Positions 3,362 through 24,577 of a DNA stretch of 64,000 nucleotides are shown piece after piece. Under the pieces are notes generated by a model that was not told where the DNA came from, made no database searches, and was given only the letters and a program-made list of their open reading frames with translations. Each line of letters begins with the position of its first letter. Positions within the stretch are counted from its first letter, which is position 1. The DNA is from Peptococcaceae bacterium (lineage in GTDB: Bacteria > Bacillota > Peptococcia > Peptococcales > BICA1-8), in NCBI GenBank assembly GCA_049366715.1, contig JBMNCQ010000004.1, positions 244,374 to 308,373 on the forward strand, given 5' to 3'. The position numbers and the translations under genes are program-made.

Positions 3362-4699
3362 CTAGCTTTTGGTTTTTTCCAACAGGATCAATTTATCAAT
3401 TAAATTAATCCCGGACCGATATTTTTTCCTGGTTAAAATTACTTCGATTACGGCTGCGCCTAAAGCCCGGGAATTATGTCTGACCAGCTTTGTTTCGTCC
3501 AATAAAGGTTTTGCTAATACTTTTACCCCTAATTTATTAAGCTTATCGCTATCTATTACTACCTGTTCGGCACCATCTGAAATGTATTTTTCCAATAAGT
3601 CATGATCTGAAATCCGTTGGTCGTTTACTAAAATGTAATCGATAGCCAGCTCCTGAATGTGCCTGTAAATTGCCTCCAAATGATCTCCAGCGGTATATGT
3701 TAAAGTTTCCCCGGGTTGGGTCATCACATTACAGACATAAATTTTAACAGCTTTGCTGCCGGTAACGGCTTCAGGTATTCCTGATATTAAAAGATTAGGA
3801 ATTACACTGGTGAATAAACTGCCCGGTCCTAAGATAACCGCATCTGCCTCATTAATTGCTTCCAGAGCCTCATCAAGGGGTTCAATGAATTCAGGCCGGA
3901 TAAAGATCTCTTTTATCGGCTGGGCTGCTGCCGAAATATTACTTTCCCCGTTAATCACGGTACCGTCGGCCAGCCGGGCATTTAAAACAACATTCTGGAG
4001 GGTTGAAGGAATTACTTTCCCCCGGATTGCCAGAACCCTGCTCATCTGCCTGACGGCTTCTTCAAAATTCCCGTACATATCAGACATTGCCGCAAGAAAA
4101 AGATTTCCTAAATTATGACCGGCCAGTTCATCCCCATGCTTAAACCGGTAATTCAATACTTTTTCCATTAAAGCTTCTTTATCTGCTAAAGCAATTAAAC
4201 AGTTTCTCACATCGCCGGGAGGAAGGATTCCCAATTGATCCCTCAATCTTCCGGAACTGCCGCCGTCATCCGCCACCGATACGATCGCTGTAATATTGCT
4301 GGTAAATTCCTTTAAGCCTCTCAGTAAAACAGAAAGTCCTGTTCCTCCGCCTATTACAACAATCCTGGGACCTCTTTTCAGTAACCTTTCTTGATGAATA
4401 GGCCGGACCTGACTCCTTGCATACTCTGGGAAAACCGCTTTAATAAAAGCCCGCACTACTTTTTTGAAACTGATGATCAATATTAAACTGCCGATGCTTA
4501 ATACAACTAAACCGCCAAATACGATACTGCCGCCCAGCATGTCTATTACCAGACCTTTGGTATATAATTCAATAAGCCCTAAAATAGGTGTATCACTGAT
4601 AATTGCCATCCCAACACTCACTAAAGTAAAACCGATTATACCTAACGCCAGCCATCTCTTTATTCCCAGCCCCGGATAAAGCCATTTTAAAAATTCCAT
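3362..4699 (-). CDS. yvcK: YvcK/GlmR (UPF0052) family protein with N-terminal membrane segments
   Basis: VVIGGGTGLS, VADDGGSSGRLR, PPGDVRNCL, GPGSLFTS. Confidence 0.95.
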   Translation of the reverse strand: MEFLKWLYPGLGIKRWLALGIIGFTLVSVGMAIISDTPILGLIELYTKGLVIDMLGGSIVFGGLVVLSIGSLILIISFKKVVRAFIKAVFPEYARSQVRPIHQERLLKRGPRIVVIGGGTGLSVLLRGLKEFTSNITAIVSVADDGGSSGRLRDQLGILPPGDVRNCLIALADKEALMEKVLNYRFKHGDELAGHNLGNLFLAAMSDMYGNFEEAVRQMSRVLAIRGKVIPSTLQNVVLNARLADGTVINGESNISAAAQPIKEIFIRPEFIEPLDEALEAINEADAVILGPGSLFTSVIPNLLISGIPEAVTGSKAVKIYVCNVMTQPGETLTYTAGDHLEAIYRHIQELAIDYILVNDQRISDHDLLEKYISDGAEQVVIDSDKLNKLGVKVLAKPLLDETKLVRHNSRALGAAVIEVILTRKKYRSGINLIDKLILLEKTKS

Positions 4700-5577
4700 C
4701 AGGTATGTACTCCTTGCCTGTCTATATCACGGTGTTTAACCGTTACCTGGTATTCGTCCTTCTGGAGGAGCTGCGCCAAAAAATCAGCCAGGGCAACAGA
4801 CCTGTGCCTTCCGCCCGTACAGCCTATTGCAATTGCCAAGTGGGTTTTACCCTCGGAAATATAGTTGGGAATGAGAAAACTGAGTAAATCATAGTACTTG
4901 TTGATGAATGTGTTACTTATCGGGGATTTAAAAACATAATCCCGGACTTCTTGATCACTACCCGTCAATTCTTTAAGCTCGGGAATATAATAGGGGTTAG
5001 GCAGAAATCTTACGTCTATCAGAAGATCTGTATCAAGAGGTATCCCATATTTATACCCAAAGGACATCACGGTAATGGATAAAAGTTGATTTTTTCCGCT
5101 GTTTCCCCATAAGCTTTGAATTTCTTCCTTTAATTGGCCGGGTTTTAACTCTGTGGTATCGATTATTTTATTCGCCCTTCCCCGTAGTTCCTGAAGCCTT
5201 TCCCGCTCCAGATTGATCCCTTCGATAATCCCGCCGTCGGGATTTAAGGGATGTCTCCTGCGGGTTTCTTTAAACCTGTTTATTAAGATTTCATTGGATG
5301 CTTCTAAAAATAAAATCTCATAATTTATACCCATCGTTTTTAAATCTTCCAGGGCAGCAAAAAGATCATCAAAAAATTGTCCTCCCCTGATATCAATTAC
5401 CAGGGCAACCTTGTTCACCTTACCTTTGGACTGGGTACAGAGCTCAGCAAATTTAGGGATCAATAAAGGCGGCAGATTATCTACACAAAAATAACCCAAA
5501 TCCTCTAAACTGCGGACTGCCTGGGTTTTACCCGCACCGGACAAACCGGTAATAATCAAAACACTTACTTCACTCAT
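4699..5577 (-). CDS. rapZ: RapZ/YvcJ P-loop NTPase
   Basis: [26 protein letters not shown]; start placed at ATG 5577 behind GGAGG. Confidence 0.95.
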
Positions 5578-5639
5578 ATCTCTTCCTCCGTTTACTGCCG
5601 GAACAGCTTTTTTATGATAACATATTCGCTCACGGGTCT

Positions 5640-5755
5640 GGCTTCGGCGTCTGACTATCCTCACAAGTCTAGCCTGGGCATCAGACGCAATACGTTCACC
5701 CTACAGCAGATCTGACGCAATACATTCGCCCGGAAGTACATCCGACCCGGAATCT
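5640..5755. repeat. Degenerate ~30-bp-period repeat array (CTGAC-type cores)
   Basis: Cores CTGAC 5651, CAGAC 5682, CTGAC 5712, CCGAC 5742; two units share GACGCAATACRTTCRCCC. Confidence 0.7.
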
Positions 5756-6487
5756 TCAGGTTGCATTCAAGACTTGATCTACAGGTATACCGGCCTTCTT
5801 TAACACATATGCTCCATACTCAAACTCTCCTACCGTTTCAGGATAATGGGCATCGCTATTGACAATAAAATTCACTCCGGAATTAGCTACTGCCAATACC
5901 TCCTTAATACCGGGAAATGTATGACCGGTATTTATCTCCAGGGCCGTATTCCTTTTCGCACAGGATTTAGCCAGCTCTGAAAAATCAATTTCCATCTTGA
6001 GCCCCGGATGAGTTATCGCAAGGACATCATATCTTCCCAGGGCATCCAGCAAAGTTTTAGTATTTATATTCTTTACTTTTTCCTTTAGTCCTTTATTGAT
6101 TTTAACAAGCTGATTCCCGATTACATAATTCCAGGCCGTACTTAAATCAGCGGGATAAACATAAGGATGCAGACCCACCAGCAAATAATCCAGTTCTTTA
6201 ATGATCTCCTTTCCGACATCTATTTTACCGTCTAAACTTACAATATCAGCTTCCGCACCAACCTTTTTTTTGATGTCGGGATATTCTTCATGGAGTCTCT
6301 TTAAATCTTCTTTAATCTGCAGATAAGTATTGCTGTCTTTAACGCCCGTGCCGATGTTACCAGGTCCATGGTCAGCTATACCGACCTCGAGAAGTCCCTT
6401 CAAATGAGCTGCCTCAACCATATCCTCAACCGTAGCTCTGCCATCACTATAGTTAGTATGCAGATGATAATCACCGAAAAAATGCAT
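5756..6487 (-). CDS. PHP-domain hydrolase
   Basis: DYHLHTNYSDG, IADHGP, NSDAHYP. Confidence 0.9.
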   Translation of the reverse strand: MHFFGDYHLHTNYSDGRATVEDMVEAAHLKGLLEVGIADHGPGNIGTGVKDSNTYLQIKEDLKRLHEEYPDIKKKVGAEADIVSLDGKIDVGKEIIKELDYLLVGLHPYVYPADLSTAWNYVIGNQLVKINKGLKEKVKNINTKTLLDALGRYDVLAITHPGLKMEIDFSELAKSCAKRNTALEINTGHTFPGIKEVLAVANSGVNFIVNSDAHYPETVGEFEYGAYVLKKAGIPVDQVLNAT

Positions 6488-6510: not shown

Positions 6511-6790
6511 ATTATCGTTCTCGGTTCTCAGTTATTTTTTGTGCCCTGTGCCCTGTAATCTGTGCCCTGTGCCCTGTAATCTGTACTCTGTGCCCTGTAA
6601 TCTGTGCCCTGTGCCCCTGTAATCTGTACTCTGTGCCCTGTAATCTGTGCCCTGTGCCCCTGTAATCTGTACTCTGTGCCCTGTACTCTGTGCCCTGTGC
6701 CCTGTGCCCTGTAATCTGTATCTGTGCCCTGTGCCCTGTAATCTGTATCTGTGCCCTGTACTCTGTGCCCTGTACTCTGTAATCTGTTGT
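6511..6790. repeat. Heptamer tandem array: about 35 units of CTGTGCC/CTGTAAT/CTGTACT preceded by 3 oppositely oriented units
   Basis: Units counted directly; two 8-nt and two 6-nt variant units. Confidence 0.97.
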
Positions 6791-8920: not shown

Positions 8921-9265
8921 GTTTGGTTAGTGATTAGTGATTAGTGACTGGTGACTAGTGACTAGTGACTAGTGACTAGTCACTAGTAGTATGGTAAAGT
9001 TTATAGAGCATCGTTTATCGTTCATAGATAGAGTTCTCAGTTCTCAGATACCGGTTCTCAGTTAGTTAGTTAGTGAGTAGTAAAGTTTATAGAGCATCGT
9101 TTATCGTTCATAGATAGAGTTCTCAGTTCTTAGATACCGGTTCTCAGTTGGTTGGTTGGTTAGTTAGTGAGTAGTAAAGTTTATAGAGCATCGTTTATAG
9201 TGGATAGAACTAAGAACAGTTTTACACTGTAGCTACCTTACCTTTACCTCTACCTTCTGCTAAAG
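8921..9265. repeat. Composite heptamer array with an 86/94-bp higher-order tandem repeat
   Basis: (TGACTAG)n at 8924-8986, then super-unit GTAAAGTTTATAGAGCATCGTTTATCGTTCATAG…TTCTCAG starting at 8994, 9080 and 9174 (third partial). Confidence 0.95.
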
Positions 9266-9731: not shown

Positions 9732-11597
9732 TTACTCCTTATTGTGTCTCGTCCGCAGCAGCAAATCCTGGTGAGAGTGCAGATAATCATGAACCGCCTC
9801 GGCAACTTTTCTATTTACGCCCTCTACTTGCAGCAACTCGTCGACGCTCGCCTCCTGGATCTTTTTAAAAGACCCGAAATGTTTCAGTAAATTAATCTTC
9901 CGCTTCTCCCCGATTCCCGGAATGTCATCAAGAATAGAAGCCAGATTTCTTTTACCCCGGAGACTACGATGATAAGTAATTGCAAACCTGTGGGCTTCAT
10001 CCCTGATCCGCTGTAATAGATATAAAGAAAGTGATGAACGGGGTAAAATAATGGGTTCCGGCTGATTTTCCGTAAAAAGCCACTCTTCCTTTTTCGCCAA
10101 ACCATAAGTAGGAATATAAGAGAAGCCTTGTTCCTGCATGGCCTGCCGGGCAGCTTGCAGCTGGCCTTTTCCTCCGTCAATTATGACCAGGTCCGGTAAA
10201 ACGGAGAATTTACTTGTCTTCCCGGGTTCAATTTTCTCTTCCCGGGCATTTCTAAATCTCCTGGTAATTACCTCATACATACTGGCAAAATCATTAGGAC
10301 CCTCGACTGTTTTTATTTTGAAACGGCGGTATTGATCCTTTTTTGAACGGCCTCCTTCAAAAACAACCATAGAAGCCACACTTTCCGTCCCTTGGGTATT
10401 GGAAATATCATAGCATTCAATTCTCAAAGGAGGTTTTAAAAGTTTAAGTTCAGCTTGCAGTTCCATGACAGCCCCTTCCGTCATGGCTTTTTTCTGCTGT
10501 TTTTCCAGTTCAACTTTTTCAACGGCCTCTAAAGCATTTTTCCCGACCAGTTCGATTAGTTCTTTCCTTTCGCCCCGCTTAGGGACCTTAAGGTATACCC
10601 TCCCCCCCCTTTTTACAGACAACCATTCTTCAATAACCTTTCCTTCAGAAAGATCGGCCTCAACAAGAATTTCACGGGGTATGAAATCCTGCTCCAGGTA
10701 GTATTGCTTGATAAAGGCCTCCAGGACCTCACTTCTTTCCAAATCATCTGTTCCTTTGAGAAAGAAGTTTTCCCTGCCTATTAATTTCCCTTTACGAATA
10801 AAAAATATCTGAACACAGGCTTCATCAAAACCTCGGGCCATTGCTATCACATCCTGATCCGCTGCTTCATTGGAAACGATCTTTTGTTTTTCAATGACCT
10901 GCCTGATTCCTTGAATCTGATCCCTAATTTGAGCTGCCCATTCAAACTCCAGGTTTAAAGCCGCCTTTTCCATCTCTTTTTCTAACGTAACCAGCAAATC
11001 TTCCTGTTTGCCTTCTAAAAATAAAATCACCTGTTTAATTATGTCATGATACTGTTCTTTCGTTATCTTACCTACACAGGGCGCGGCACATCTGTTAATA
11101 TGGTTATTTAAACAAGGTCTGTCATTGGTAAATACCGTCTGTTTACAGCTTCGGAAAGGAAAAATCCTTTTTAACAATTCCAAGGTTTCCCGCAGAATAG
11201 TCGCACTCGTATATGGTCCATAATATTTTGAACCGTCCTTATTGATTTTCCGCGTGACATAGACCCGGGGAAAATCTTCATTGGTTATTTTTATATAAGG
11301 ATACGTTTTATCATCCTTTAAGTTAATATTATATTTCGGACGGTATTCTTTAATTAGGTTGCATTCTAAAATCAGCGCCTCTAGTTCATTATCGGTAAGG
11401 ATATAATCAAGATCAGCAATATTTTTCACCAAAGCCCTGGTTTTGGCTGAATCATACTTTTTGCTTTGAAAATACGATTTCACCCTGTTTTTTAGAGATA
11501 TCGCTTTCCCTACATAAATAATTTCCTCCCCGGCATCTTTCATCAAATATACACCCGGTTTATTAGGCAAAGCCTGCAGTTTATCCTGAAGGGACAT
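9732..11597 (-). CDS. uvrC: Excinuclease ABC subunit C
   Basis: PGVYLM…IYVGKA…RVKSYF (GIY-YIG), RIECYDISN, IDGGKGQL, RDEAHRFAI, HhH. Confidence 0.98.
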   Translation of the reverse strand: MSLQDKLQALPNKPGVYLMKDAGEEIIYVGKAISLKNRVKSYFQSKKYDSAKTRALVKNIADLDYILTDNELEALILECNLIKEYRPKYNINLKDDKTYPYIKITNEDFPRVYVTRKINKDGSKYYGPYTSATILRETLELLKRIFPFRSCKQTVFTNDRPCLNNHINRCAAPCVGKITKEQYHDIIKQVILFLEGKQEDLLVTLEKEMEKAALNLEFEWAAQIRDQIQGIRQVIEKQKIVSNEAADQDVIAMARGFDEACVQIFFIRKGKLIGRENFFLKGTDDLERSEVLEAFIKQYYLEQDFIPREILVEADLSEGKVIEEWLSVKRGGRVYLKVPKRGERKELIELVGKNALEAVEKVELEKQQKKAMTEGAVMELQAELKLLKPPLRIECYDISNTQGTESVASMVVFEGGRSKKDQYRRFKIKTVEGPNDFASMYEVITRRFRNAREEKIEPGKTSKFSVLPDLVIIDGGKGQLQAARQAMQEQGFSYIPTYGLAKKEEWLFTENQPEPIILPRSSLSLYLLQRIRDEAHRFAITYHRSLRGKRNLASILDDIPGIGEKRKINLLKHFGSFKKIQEASVDELLQVEGVNRKVAEAVHDYLHSHQDLLLRTRHNKE

Positions 11598-11672: not shown

Positions 11673-14495
11673 TCAAAGCAGGACTTTCCGCAGAAACTGC
11701 CCGGTATATGATGCTTCTACTGCAACGATTTCCTCAGGAGTTCCCGTGGCAATCACCCGACCGCCTTTGTTACCCCCTTCGGGCCCCAGATCGATCACAT
11801 AGTCGGCAGACTTAATCACGTCTAGATTATGTTCGATTACCAGTACTGAATCACCGGCATCTACCAGTCTGCCTAAAACACCGAGCAGTTTATGAATATC
11901 GGCAATATGCAGTCCTGTCGTCGGCTCATCGAGAATATAGAGGGTCTTGCCGTTGCTGCGCCGGGAGAGTTCAGCAGCCAGTTTTATCCTTTGGGCCTCC
12001 CCTCCGGAAAGTGTTGTGGCCGGCTGTCCCAGTCTAATATACCCCAGTCCCACATCTTGCAGGGTTTTAAGCTTCCGGTAGATCTTGGGGATATTTTGAA
12101 AAAAATCAGCCCCTTGGTTAACGGTCATATCCAGCACCTGGGAGATGTTTTTTCCTTTATATCTGATATCTAAAGTTTCCCGGTTATAACGCTTACCTTT
12201 ACAGACCTCACAAGGCACATAGACGTCCGGCAGGAAATGCATCTCGATTTTTATAATACCGTCACCCCGGCATGCTTCACATCTCCCGCCCTTAACATTA
12301 AAGCTGAAGCGGCCCGGCTTATACCCCCGCATCCTGGAATCGGGTGTTTGCGAAAAGACCTGCCTGATATCATCAAAAACCGAAGTATACGTAGCAGGAT
12401 TTGAGCGCGGTGTGCGGCCGATAGGGGATTGATCGATATCTATGATCTTATCCAGATGCTCGATGCCTTCGATTCCCTTATGCTGCCCCGGTCTAGCCTT
12501 AGAATTGCTGTAAAGCCTTGACACCAATGCCTTATAAATTATCTCATTTACCAGCGTACTTTTCCCTGAACCGGATACTCCGGTAACACAGGTAAATACA
12601 CCTAAGGGAACGTCTGCATCAATATTTTTTAAATTATTTTCAGTGGCATTCCTGACCCTGATCCATTTGCCATTAGGCTGACGTCTTACCTTCGGTACAG
12701 GGATTTTCTTAATACCGGCTAAATACTGTCCGGTTATAGAATCCTCAACCTGCTTTATTTCTTCGGCCGTACCCTGGGCAACGACATACCCTCCCTGAAC
12801 TCCGGCCCCGGGACCAATATCAATGATATGATCCGCCGTCAGCATCGTATCTTCATCATGCTCAACTACGATTAAGGTATTTCCCAGATCCCGCAAATGT
12901 TCTAAGGTCTTGATTAACCGGGCATTGTCACGCTGGTGCAGGCCGATACTGGGTTCATCTAAAATATACAGCACACCGACCAGTCCGGAACCTATTTGCG
13001 TAGCCAGCCTGATCCGTTGTGCTTCCCCCCCGGATAAGGTACCGGCTGCCCGGGATAAAGTAAGGTAATCCAACCCCACATTTACTAAGAAATTTAATCT
13101 TTCTTTTATTTCCTTCAAGACCTGACGGGCAATAAGCATTTCCCTTTCCGAGAGCTCTAAATGGTCAAAAAACCCTTTCATTTCCAGGATAGACACATTT
13201 GTAACTTCATTAATATTCTTACCGGCAATTTTTATCGCCAGCACTTCCGGCTTCAAACGGGCTCCCCTGCACACCGGACAAGGTTTATTCGTCATATATT
13301 GCTCAATATCCGATCTGGAATAATCAGATTGGGTTTCCAAATACCTTCTTTGGAGATTGGGAATTACGCCTTCAAAAACAGTATCATAAACCCGGGCCTC
13401 ATTATACATATTCGTATATTTAAACCGGATTTTTTCCTGGCCTGAGCCATAGAGTATCCTGTCAAGATGTTCCGCTTTCAGTTTGGCAACAGGCGTGTTG
13501 ATGCTGAATCCATAATGTTTAGCCAATGATTCCAAAAGCTGTCCGTAATAACTCTGGGTACTTTTACTCCAGGGAAGGATCGCCCCCGCAGCAAGGGAAA
13601 GGCTGGAATCAGGAATTACCAGATCCGCATCGATCTCCATTTTTGAACCTAAACCGTCACATTCCGGGCAGGCCCCGAACGGACTGTTAAAGGAAAACAT
13701 CCTGGGGGTAATCTCTGCAAAGCTGATTCCGCAATCTACACAGGCAAAATTCTGGCTGAAGACAAGCTTTTCTCCGTCAATTACATCGATAAACACGACT
13801 CCGGCAGCCAAATTTAAAGCTGCTTCCAATGAATCGGCAAGCCTGTTTTCAATACCTTCCTTAATGATAATTCTATCGATCACAACTTCGATATTATGTT
13901 TCTTATTTTTATCCAGTTTAATTTCTTCCGCTACTTCCCGGAGCTCACCGTTTACCATTACTCTTACATAACCACTTTTTTTAAGCTCCTCTAAAACTTT
14001 CTGATGTTCCCCTTTTCTCCCCCTGACCACAGGCGCAAGAATTTGCAGCTTTGTTCTTTCCGCCAGCCCCATTAATTGGTCAACAATTTGCTGCACGGTT
14101 TGCTGGGCAATTTTTTTCCCGCATTTAGGACAATGAGGCACGCCGATTCGGGCAAAAAGCAACCGCAGATAATCATAAATTTCCGTTACCGTTCCTACTG
14201 TTGAACGGGGATTCCTGCTGGTGGTCTTCTGGTCAATGGAAATCGCCGGAGAAAGGCCTCCGATATAATCCACATCAGGTTTATCCATCTGGCCTAAAAA
14301 CTGACGGGCATAGGCCGATAAGGATTCCACATATCTACGCTGCCCTTCAGCATAAATCGTATCAAAAGCCAGGGAGGACTTGCCGGAACCACTTAACCCG
14401 GTAATGACCACAAATTTATCCCTGGGTATTTCAATATCTATATTTTTCAAATTGTGCACCCTGGCACCTTTAACCACAATTTTATCTTTCGCCAT
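11673..14495 (-). CDS. uvrA: Excinuclease ABC subunit A
   Basis: Two ABC modules ([28 protein letters not shown]) with zinc fingers; start at ATG 14495 behind GGAGG. Confidence 0.99.
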
Positions 14496-14519
14496 CTCTT
14501 TTCCTCCAATTTTTCTAGT

Positions 14520-14948
14520 GGGTAACATTCCAGGTCAGTTTCAGACTCACAGGCCTAAAAGCTTATTTGTCAGTGATACGCATAGGTAACTTGCGGGGTC
14601 AGCTTTTTTATTTGAAAGTAAATTTGTTTGTCAGTATATATGCTTAGAAGCAATCTTGTTGGTTGGTGTATCTCTTAAGTAAATATTTTGTATCGGTATT
14701 AATTTAGGATAGTTCAATTTGTTAGTATATGCTTCAAAGTGATCTTATCGGTCAAAATATATTTAAGCATATATTCTTGGCAAGAACAAAATTATGTGTA
14801 AATTATTATGTTTGTAAGATTTAAACTAACACAATAGAATAGCCCATAAAAACTGCTGACCAATAAAATTACCCTCTAGTAACTTCTGACATAAAGGATT
14901 ACTTAGACGCTCACCCGACTAATCATGCTGCCTAAGCAGCTCACCCAT
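14520..14948. repeat. Bipolar degenerate ~30-bp-period array filling the uvrB-uvrA spacer
   Basis: Ten GTCAG-like cores at 14534-14810, then four CTGAC-like cores at 14826-14915. Confidence 0.8.
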
Positions 14949-14952
14949 GAGC

Positions 14953-16935
14953 CTACAGTTTCCCTTTCAACTCTATAATCAAGTCCCTGATCATGGCTGC
15001 TTTTTCAAACTCTAAAGCCTTGGCAGCCTCCTGCATATCTTTTTCCAGATCTTTGATTAACTTCTTCAATTCGTTTTTCGGCATCCGCTCAACTTTATCC
15101 TGAGTAAGCTGATATTCCGGACCCTTTTCCGCCACCGCCGTTGCTTCTATGACAGACCGCACGGATTTCTTGATCGTCTGAGGTGTAATATGATGTTCTT
15201 CATTAAATTCCATCTGCCTTTGACGACGCCGGTTTGTTTCGTCAATAGCCCGCTGCATGGATCCTGTCACTACATCTCCATACATGATTACTTTACCGTT
15301 AACATTTCTGGCTGCCCGGCCGATGGTCTGGATTAATGAACGGTCCGATCGCAAAAACCCTTCCTTATCGGCATCAAGGATGGCAACTAAGGATACTTCC
15401 GGGAGGTCCAGACCTTCCCTTAAGAGATTTATCCCGACAAGGATATCAAATACCCCCAGCCGTAAATCCCGGAGAATTTCCATTCGTTCAATGGTTTTAA
15501 TTTCCGAGTGCAGATAACGTACCCTCAGCCCGGTTTCTTTAAAGAAATCAGTCAGATCTTCCGCCATCTTTTTCGTCAGGGTGGTAATCAATACCCGTTC
15601 ATCTCTCTCTACTCTAATCCGGATTTCATTTAACAGGTCGTCAATCTGACCCTTAACCGGCCTGACCTCAATCTCCGGATCGACAAGACCCGTAGGCCTG
15701 ATGATCTGTTCCACAGTCCGTTTGCTGTGTTGTATTTCATAGGATCCCGGAGTGGCAGAGACGAAAATGACCTGCCCCACCTTTTCTTCAAACTCATGGA
15801 ACTGCAGAGGCCGGTTATCCAAGGCCGACGGCAGTCTAAAACCGTGCTCCACTAAACTGGTTTTCCGCGATTTGTCCCCTTCGTACATTCCCCCGATTTG
15901 CGGGATTGTTACGTGGGATTCGTCAATCATAATCAAAAAATCCTCCGGGAAAAAATCCAGCAGGGTATAGGGAGCATCGCCGGGCTTCCTCCCCGTCAAA
16001 TGCCGGGAATAATTCTCTATCCCCGTACAAAAACCCACTTCCCGTATCATTTCTAAATCATATTTTGTTCTTTGTTCCAGGCGCTGAGCCTCTAAAAGCT
16101 TGTCCTTACTTCTTAGCTCACTGAGCCTTTGCTCCAGTTCCTCTTCGATTTTCCTTAAAGCGGTATCCAGATGTTCAGGATCTGTAATATAGTGCGTAGC
16201 GGGAAATATGCTGATATGCTTTCTCTGCCCTAATATTTCACCCGTTAAGATGTCTATCTCCATGATCCGCTCGATTTCATCACCAAACATTTCGATCCGA
16301 ATGGCCTTTTCCGATAAAGACGCAGGAAGTACCTCTACGACATCACCTCTGACTCGGAAAGTCCCCCGCACAAAATTTACATCATTTCTTTCGTATTGAA
16401 TATCAACAAGCTTACGGAGGATTTTATCCCGGTCATAGACCTGTCCCACCCTTAAAGAAAGTGTTTGATTTTTATAGTCTTCAGGAGAACCTAAGCCATA
16501 GATACAGGATACACTGGCAACAATAATTACGTCTCTTCTCTCAAAAAGGGCAGAGGTGGCCGAGTGTCTTAACTTTTCTATCTCTTCATTAATTTGGGCA
16601 TCTTTTTCTATATATGTATCTGTATGGGCGATATATGCCTCCGGTTGGTAGTAATCATAATAACTCACAAAATATTCTACGGCATTTTCAGGAAAAAATT
16701 CTTTAAACTCACTGCAGAGCTGTGCTGCCAATGTCTTATTATGGGCGATCACCAGGGTAGGTCGGTTAACCTCCGCAATCACATTAGCCATGGTGAAAGT
16801 TTTTCCGGAACCTGTTACCCCTAATAAAGTTTGTTTGGGTATTCCGCAATATAATCCGTCAGCAAGTTCAGCAATTGCCTGAGGCTGACCGCCTTTAGGC
16901 TGATAGTCTGAAACCAGTTTAAACTTATCCGACAT
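14953..16935 (-). CDS. uvrB: Excinuclease ABC subunit B
   Basis: [33 protein letters not shown]-terminal UVR domain. Confidence 0.99.
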
Positions 16936-24380: not shown

Positions 24381-24577
24381 ATTTAGTGACCGGTGGTTAG
24401 TGATTAGTGACTAGTGACTAGTGGTTAGTGACTAGTATAGTTGAGATCATGGAGCATAGAGCATAGATTATGGTTCATAGTTTATGGTTCATAGTTTATA
24501 GTTCATGGGTTATGGGTTTGAGAACTGAGAACCGAGAACTGAGAACTGAGAACTGAATACAGACAACTGAGAACAGC
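24381..24577. repeat. Bipolar heptamer array filling the ctpA-minJ spacer
   Basis: About 17 NNNNYRG units (TGACTAG, AGCATAG, TTCATAG, TTTATGG), then 8 CTGAGAA-type units. Confidence 0.95.

Follow-up and report, generated by a model that had tools for sequence, protein, structure and literature searches.

Lineage-specific intergenic repeats are common, and most of the known families form hairpins, such as REP, the arms of BOX and the Correia elements. Pneumococcal BOX and BrickBuilt of Porphyromonas are modular dispersed intergenic elements with an internal variable tandem array, which in elements of this type is flanked by fixed end modules or terminal inverted repeats and goes along with target duplication. 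The MIRU-type minisatellites of mycobacteria are tandem repeats of variable copy number in the gaps of housekeeping operons; the length of their unit preserves a reading frame, and small ORFs overlap the stop and the start of the adjacent genes. Phased arrays bound by proteins are represented by iterons, partition sites and Lrp-type sites (about three helical turns apart). CRISPR arrays consist of near-identical repeats with unique spacers of similar length between them, and TIGR-Tas guide arrays go along with a gene for a Nop-domain Tas protein in the genome. According to Ton-Hoang et al. (2011; PMC3333891), REP and BIME sequences of Escherichia coli and other Proteobacteria are short non-coding intergenic repeats that often lie in operons and form mosaic arrays, the REP unit being an imperfect palindrome of 30-40 nt that can form a hairpin.

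Here, we analysed a 64,000-nucleotide stretch of DNA (the window) from the genome of a Peptococcaceae bacterium (the source genome, G000), in which the gap between uvrB and uvrA is filled by a two-armed array of short units. The repeat family behind this array shares habitat and behaviour with REP/BIME, the modular elements and MIRU but lacks defining features of REP/BIME and MIRU.

Organization of the uvrB-uvrA spacer

The array separates two genes of the uvrBA operon, and a second member of the same family is present in the window:

4699-5664, minus strand: RapZ-like gene flanking the second array
5649-5747: second family member, canonical, with one forward and two reverse units, in the PHP|rapZ gap
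5756-6487, minus strand: PHP-domain gene flanking the second array
11673-14495, minus strand: uvrA (NCBIfam equivalog UvrA, 1615.7 bits), downstream of the uvr array
14496-14952: uvrB-uvrA spacer, 457 bp, occupied over its whole length by the two-armed array
14520-14825, plus strand: left arm, ten units of the RGTAA-N8-GTCAG type
14756-14783, minus strand: sigma-70-like pair TTGCCA-16-TATATT in the decayed centre, facing uvrA; a consensus match only
14810-14830: polarity switch between the arms, GTTTG then CTAAC, far more degenerate than the pivots of canonical arrays
14826-14948, minus strand: right arm, four units, of which those at 14856 and 14886 are recognised by an independent profile
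14953-16935, minus strand: uvrB (NCBIfam equivalog UvrB, 1111 bits), upstream of the uvr array

The start codon of uvrA (ATG at 14495) is preceded by GGAGG at 14503-14507 on the minus strand. The initial annotation had described the spacer by 14 pentamer cores, and all of them are present at the coordinates and in the orientation it gave, ten GTCAG-like cores on the plus strand and four as the complement; an RGTAA box stands 13 bp before each core. The spacings it had reported were likewise borne out, with 35, 29, 32, 32, 30, 29, 30, 28 and 31 bp in the left arm and 30, 30 and 29 bp in the right. In the left arm, the outer three units are recognisable members of the family and the inner ones are AT-rich and decayed. 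The sigma-70-like pair in the centre matches the consensus at 10 of 12 positions, in a region that holds seven such sites vs 2.5 expected. Neither a terminator-like site nor an open reading frame of at least 40 aa lies wholly within the spacer, and the SOS-box motif GAAC-N4-GTTC has no match between positions 11000 and 18000 of the window.

The periodicity of the spacer is significant, as only 0.2-0.4% of 1000 dinucleotide shuffles reach its maximum. Base autocorrelation peaks at lags of 29, 30, 32, 64 and 89 (z 3-4.3 against these shuffles), and the array carries higher-order periods of two units (61-64 bp) and three units (89-91 bp). These are also the distances between pairs of inner units that resemble one another, among them three 30-nt copies at 67-70% identity. 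Family membership was assessed with a profile built from other loci and containing no uvr unit, which matches the spacer three times on the plus strand (14520-14605) and twice on the minus strand (14856-14900). The summed score is 6.6 bits vs 0.17 in 500 shuffles, 0.4% of which reach 6.6. Since the uvr-free profile still matches them, these five outer units belong to the family irrespective of their neighbours. The profile thus recognises 5 of the 14 units, all of them outer, and the assignment of the nine inner AT-rich units rests on their mutual similarity and the periodicity. Tandem Repeats Finder (TRF) reported no repeat between 14000 and 15500, the divergence of the copies being greater than standard detection tolerates. 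A matrix scan gave 12 matches in the spacer vs 5 at the next-best place of the genome, a circular comparison insofar as the matrix was trained on the same uvr units that it then found; at this next-best place, a contig ends in an exact tandem array of 31-bp units. Taken as sequence, the spacer is best explained as an old, decayed and AT-rich member of a dispersed, non-coding repeat family.

A dispersed repeat family in the source genome

Whole-genome analysis with TRF revealed 30-31-bp arrays with the same two boxes on contigs C52, C54, C55, C72, C74, C94, C104 and C105, the young ones with 93-96% identity over the full 30-31-bp period. Alignment of the arrays yields a unit of 30-31 bp composed of nGTCnGAc, 9-10 bp, (C)CGGGTRAA and 7-8 bp. 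Its core GTCnGAC is quasi-palindromic and often extended to GCGTCnGAC, and the 9-10-bp stretch that follows contains TACT before the GGGTRAA box. The profile search returned 21 strong rows, which we interpret as about 19 intergenic loci besides uvr, with the array ends on C94 and C104 counted as the two ends of one array. Unit number per array ranges from 1 to more than 20, and some arrays include runs of 7-12 near-identical units; because runs of N interrupt several arrays (C55, C105 and L055), unit counts are lower bounds. The assembly of the source genome is 85% complete in 108 contigs, and four arrays stop at contig ends. By synteny with the relative G002, C94:1-338 and C104:1-287 are apparently the forward and the reverse arm of a single femAB|alr array with at least 20 units. 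The assembly seems to break inside this repeat, and C72 and C74 also terminate in arrays.

The genes that flank the arrays are housekeeping genes and encode MraY, MurD, FemAB, Alr, an amino-acid kinase, a ComEA-like protein, HydF, NFACT, PHP and RapZ-like proteins. Complete arrays lie mostly between co-directional genes (14 of 16), with one in a convergent and one in a divergent gap. When units are tallied by gene orientation, 40 are forward and 37 reverse, and unit orientation is therefore unbiased with respect to transcription. The arrays directly adjoin the genes: the stop codon of mraY lies within the GGGTRA box of the first unit in G000, G001 and G002. In the mraY|murD gap of G007 (L087), the first unit begins right after the mraY stop. 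Furthermore, the FemAB-like protein of the source genome is three residues longer than that of G002, apparently by reading into the first unit.

The initial annotation had implied that the array is a device of the uvr operon. This part does not stand, as the same unit and the same two-armed plan recur in about 19 other gaps between unrelated housekeeping genes. Therefore, any role must be genome-wide, or there is none.

A subfamily with a 35-bp unit (GGTCAGGTAGAGGTAAA ... GGGGTAnTnTTACA) is found at no fewer than eight loci of the source genome, for example at C72:245-304 and C72:3298-3340 and on C29, C33, C59 and C74. One of its frames resembles Gly/Arg/Lys codons, but this frame lacks a start codon and is non-coding.

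Polarity, pivot and spacing of the arrays

All 12 mixed-polarity arrays of the source genome run from a forward arm over a pivot to a reverse arm, with a single switch. The same plus-then-minus order is seen in 12 of 12 non-redundant mixed arrays of relatives (two of them with a longer centre), a count that leaves out loci from named records since some of these duplicate the same places. Clusters at noise level in the source genome (8-9.5 bits) comprise two of the '+-' and two of the '-+' order. At one locus of G007 (L048, 538-1550), a reverse-only array is followed 777 bp further on by a forward-only array; as two minus-strand ORFs of 67 and 118 aa lie between them, we treat these runs as two separate gaps.

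At the pivot, the core turns into a full palindrome, either GCGTCnGACGC or CTTGTGTCnGAC with a matching half, and the polarity flips. A pivot motif, YTTGTGTCNGAC followed by GCAAAA, occurs 14 times in the source genome vs about one occurrence expected at equal base frequencies, adjoins unit matches in 12 of these 14 cases and is found nine times among 19 scanned loci of relatives. The pivot is asymmetric, and both of its orientations occur with respect to the genes on either side. Isolated palindromic pivot sites, sought with a regular expression, were no more frequent than a divergent control (seven matches vs nine), which makes this search uninformative.

The spacing of about 30 bp claimed for the uvr array reappears in the family as a whole: distances between neighbouring GTCNGAC cores peak at 30-32 bp, and a reversed control motif is flat. 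Among core pairs separated by 29-36 bp, 18 of 20 in the source genome and 37 of 39 in relatives fall into the 30-32-bp range. Periods of 35 bp in a subfamily and of about 33-36 bp in some uvr arrays of relatives are also present. The 35-bp periods weaken a strict three-helical-turn rule, and helical phase is therefore not universal. TRF also detected two-unit periods of about 61 bp on C94 and C105. Together with the 89-91-bp periods, these higher-order repeats suggest that the arrays grow in blocks of one to three units.

Occupancy of the same gaps in relatives

In 8 of 8 relatives, uvrB adjoins uvrA, with gaps of 60 and 69 bp in two and of 287, 309, 346, 430, 443 and 707 bp in the other six. 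Forward-then-reverse arrays are present within this gap in G001, G003 and G008, and the 69-bp gap of G005 has one reverse unit only. Comparison of the spacer across relatives, which the initial annotation had proposed, showed that the outermost units hold their position and that the interior is replaced. Of eight readable spacers, six have a GGGT-type first unit right behind the uvrB stop codon and five a CTGACC-type last unit ahead of the uvrA ribosome site (both counts including the source genome), with a weaker sixth case of the latter in G004. How fast the interior changes can be seen from G001 and G002, two species of one genus, in which the first 120 residues of UvrA are about 95% identical vs gap interiors that are unalignable.

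Other gaps give a comparable picture. Between femAB and alr, G000 and G002 each have an array. Of nine genomes, six have a long and three a tight mraY|murD gap, and among eight genomes with a match, the profile detected units in the PHP|rapZ gap only in G000 and G002. Unit numbers at one locus vary among genera. Nevertheless, positions left free in the search pattern keep a consensus across genera, namely CATATTGC / CATTGCTA and AATACTTCT, as drawn from G002, G005 and G007 with 3-7 units per genome. The family thus stays at given gaps over the long term while their interiors turn over quickly. Comparing filled with tight mraY|murD gaps, we found no clean junction between an empty and a filled state, and saw neither separate end modules nor target duplications, nor any terminal repeats other than the units themselves. 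Repeated insertion into a preferred site could likewise explain why a locus is occupied in several genomes.

The gaps of relatives are mosaics that also contain heptamer arrays and repeats of the GATGCATC type. The repeat around the palindrome GATGCATC fills parts of the uvr gap of G002 (L058) and of the mraY|murD gaps of G003 (L088) and G001 (L090), and in mraY-murD gaps of relatives, the heptamers at one end repeat those at the other in inverted form. Arrays of 7-bp units are present in the window as well, at 6540-6787, 8928-8987, 9033-9198 and 24383-24574, with units such as TGTGCCC (33 copies), TAGTGAC, ATAGTTT and TGAGAAC; the TRF output for the source genome contains 154 rows of period 7 with about 7.2 kb in total. 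These heptamers recall the intergenic TAACTGA repeats of Beggiatoaceae, described in a paper that makes no mention of Firmicutes or Clostridia (PMC4679880). A composite mosaic whose modules always follow one order, GGTAGAGGTAAAG and then short repeats of the CTACAGT, ATAAACG and TAGTCAC type, was observed at 8994-9260 of the window and on three contigs of the source genome (C33:13932-14080, C29 near 27086 on the minus strand and C2:32162-32310). The window also contains an 86-bp unit in 2.3 copies.

Distribution across genomes

Of nine genomes in the taxonomic family f1, six contain the exact two-box pattern, which has one doubtful match among 79 other genomes of the class; the reversed pattern as a control gave no match in the same genomes. 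A search of one genome per species (185,579 species) returned 23 stretches. Twelve of them belong to six uncultured Bacillota MAG records, labelled as Peptococcaceae, Clostridiaceae, Clostridia, Bacillota or Eubacteriales bacterium, and the profile shows arrays in four of these six. The remaining 11 stretches are single matches in unrelated taxa, where about 13 are expected by chance. Among metagenome contigs there were 15 stretches, five on two long contigs of one metagenome and the others single. A canonical array had no blastn match in plasmids and phages, and the family did not occur in the viral contigs searched. The repeat family is thus essentially restricted to one lineage, an uncultured Peptococcaceae-like group.

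RNA folding, arm pairing and coding potential

The proposal that spacing, core and head-to-head polarity are maintained rather than base pairing agrees with all folding analyses. The RNA fold of the uvr spacer is not better than that of shuffles (z -1.18), and cognate arms pair no better than swapped ones in 20 arrays (mean residual +1.3 kcal/mol, permutation P 0.78). A hairpin unit was rejected, as DNA folds of six arm segments lie within the range of shuffles (z +0.87, +0.37, -1.45, -0.28, -1.27 and -0.36) and GTCnGAC alone is palindromic. A coding repeat was rejected for the array as well: with periods of 30, 31 and 32 bp intermixed, the units do not maintain a reading frame, and the spacer encloses no ORF of the size given above. 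Rfam searches of the uvr spacer (E up to 10) and of 15 array loci (E up to 0.1) returned only chance-level snoRNA-like matches and tRNAs elsewhere. The element had been called unnamed, and it still is: there is no match in Rfam, and we found no description in the literature.

Comparison with described repeat systems

The family resembles REP/BIME repeats in being non-coding, confined to gaps, often situated inside operons and lineage-specific, and in forming mosaic clusters with a locus-dependent copy number and similar copies within a locus. In contrast to REP hairpins, the 31-bp unit folds like shuffles and only its 7-bp core is palindromic. Where REP and iREP alternate in pairs, with linkers between them and the pairs repeated in tandem, units of the family are direct within an arm and flip once per array, in 24 of 24 mixed arrays. 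Furthermore, copies number in the tens and not in the hundreds as for REP, and no Y1 transposase is associated with the family. In a REPtron, a Y1 (HUH) transposase gene is flanked by the repeats; the source genome has four Y1_Tnp matches, the best unit match within about 1.5 kb of them reaches 6.9 bits (E 0.21), and no chain of GTCNGAC cores lies beside these genes.

With BOX and BrickBuilt, the family has in common a variable number of short tandem units in the middle and edges that stay put, but both halves are arrays of one unit in opposite polarity around a conserved pivot, and separate end modules were not seen. MIRU elements are similar in that tandem repeats of variable copy number lie in housekeeping-operon gaps, but the arrays described here are two-armed and, with 30, 31 and 32 bp mixed, keep no reading frame. 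The fixed spacing near integral helical turns and a polar, non-palindromic site that is inverted once are reminiscent of phased binding arrays. Unlike iteron or partition arrays, however, these arrays are chromosomal, occupy about 20 loci next to unrelated genes, have no rep, par or regulator gene alongside and do not match plasmids or phages.

Three further candidates were rejected. In a CRISPR array, spacers would be unique, but here the whole 30-31-bp period is one unit with boxes conserved throughout. TIGR-Tas arrays do not fit, as Pfam Nop (PF01798) has no match in the source genome at its 85% completeness and the arrays lie beside housekeeping genes. An inverted-repeat element derived from Tn3 was discarded with no match of PF01526 in the nine genomes of the family.

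What sets the repeats apart is the combination of a polar non-palindromic unit, a strict period of 31 +/- 1 bp, arrays that always face each other across a conserved pivot, and a plan that outlasts complete replacement of the interior between species. Together, these four traits point to recognition of double-stranded DNA by some putative protein.

Discussion

We favour the reading that the array is a lineage-specific genomic repeat of the REP/BIME or BOX kind, carried as a passenger in uvrBA, and assign it a probability of roughly 0.55. Under this reading, arrays would change by gain or loss of blocks of one, two or three units via replication slippage or unequal exchange, and such turnover would leave young arrays with runs of near-identical units and older ones, like the uvr copy, with drifted units. 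All arrays may descend from one palindromic seed whose halves amplify separately, and the fixed forward-then-reverse order would then be due to this descent. Since consensus and 31 +/- 1 spacing are kept without pairing of the arms, a protein probably recognises the units as duplex DNA; this putative sequence-specific reader may be a host factor or an enzyme by which the repeats are generated or maintained. For uvrBA, the array would be a long untranslated gap that is either read through, no terminator having been found, or served by the promoter-like site in the decayed centre. It is probably incidental to the operon.

The idea of the initial annotation that the units are phased sites for an oligomeric DNA-binding protein can be generalised to adaptive, genome-wide platforms with phase and polarity for a lineage-specific oligomerising protein. 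This protein might organise the nucleoid or act as a two-sided polar roadblock between genes, and the uvr array would be one working site. Retention of the core, the second box and the spacing of 31 +/- 1 bp in arms that do not pair would be expected of such platforms, as would the stable cross-genus consensus in spite of interior replacement, the fixed place of the outermost uvr units, the strict polarity of all 24 mixed arrays and the restriction of arrays to gaps between core genes. We nevertheless consider this reading, the most probable of the alternatives, rather unlikely: no candidate protein that binds or mobilises the units was found, occupancy is patchy (tight mraY|murD gaps in 3 of 9 genomes, uvr gaps of 60-69 bp in 2 of 9), arrays comprise anything between 1 and more than 20 units, decay has made the inner uvr units unrecognisable and 35-bp variants break the phase.

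A more specific proposal, which we put forward as speculation and rate as rather improbable, is that a protein restricted to this family of bacteria docks on the units in a defined orientation. The facing arms would load it in opposite polarities and turn the gap into a symmetric, direction-sensitive barrier or organiser. If so, transcription, supercoiling or loop extrusion could be affected in the gaps between housekeeping operons. Replication-terminator sites are opposed and the origin-recognition boxes of archaeal origins are inverted, and the arrays would be a small-scale analogue of either arrangement.

It is improbable that the arrays are non-autonomous, MITE-like transposons whose arms hold multiple transposase-binding sites, as at the ends of elements of the Tn7, Mu or IS21 type. 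Sites that are direct within an arm, inverted between arms and pointing inward would suit such ends, copies at unrelated loci would be expected, and a pivot that is asymmetric and lies in either orientation to the flanking genes resembles a discrete insertion. However, no pair of forward and reverse arms was seen to enclose a transposase or another large element in the source genome. PF01526, the Tn3-family transposase, is without a match in the nine family genomes although control genomes were positive, and none of the four Y1-transposase genes of the source genome has adjoining units. The mraY|murD comparison disclosed neither terminal repeats distinct from the units nor target duplications, and the family is absent from the plasmids, phages and viral contigs searched. 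In addition, the arrays contain runs of 7-12 near-identical units, which to our knowledge are not a feature of Tn7-, Mu- or IS21-type ends.

A role at the RNA level, in which the arms pair as a long hairpin that loops out the spacer of the uvrBA transcript or the units are cut to small RNAs, is very unlikely. The minimum-energy fold of the spacer does pair the 5' with the 3' arm, two outer units have a complementarity of 74% over 27 nt, and 14 of 16 arrays lie between co-directional genes. But the fold energy is no better than that of shuffles, cognate arms have no advantage over non-cognate ones, the two arms of the mraY|murD array are of different sub-types, and arrays of this plan are present in one convergent and one divergent gap; no Rfam family matched, and no Nop-domain (Tas-like) gene was found in the source genome.

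Least probable of all is a private uvr operator, that is, phased sites for a repair-related regulator of uvrA, for which the position directly upstream of uvrA and the promoter-like site in the centre could be taken, but which is refuted in its strict form because the family is dispersed over about 19 other loci with unrelated genes, and which also has to contend with the missing SOS-box motif and with two relatives whose gaps of 60-69 bp contain at most one unit.

For the group of organisms concerned, the arrays would account for the breaking of subsurface Peptococcaceae-like assemblies at housekeeping operons. Beyond this, the family provides a clean system for asking how such repeats arise and persist.
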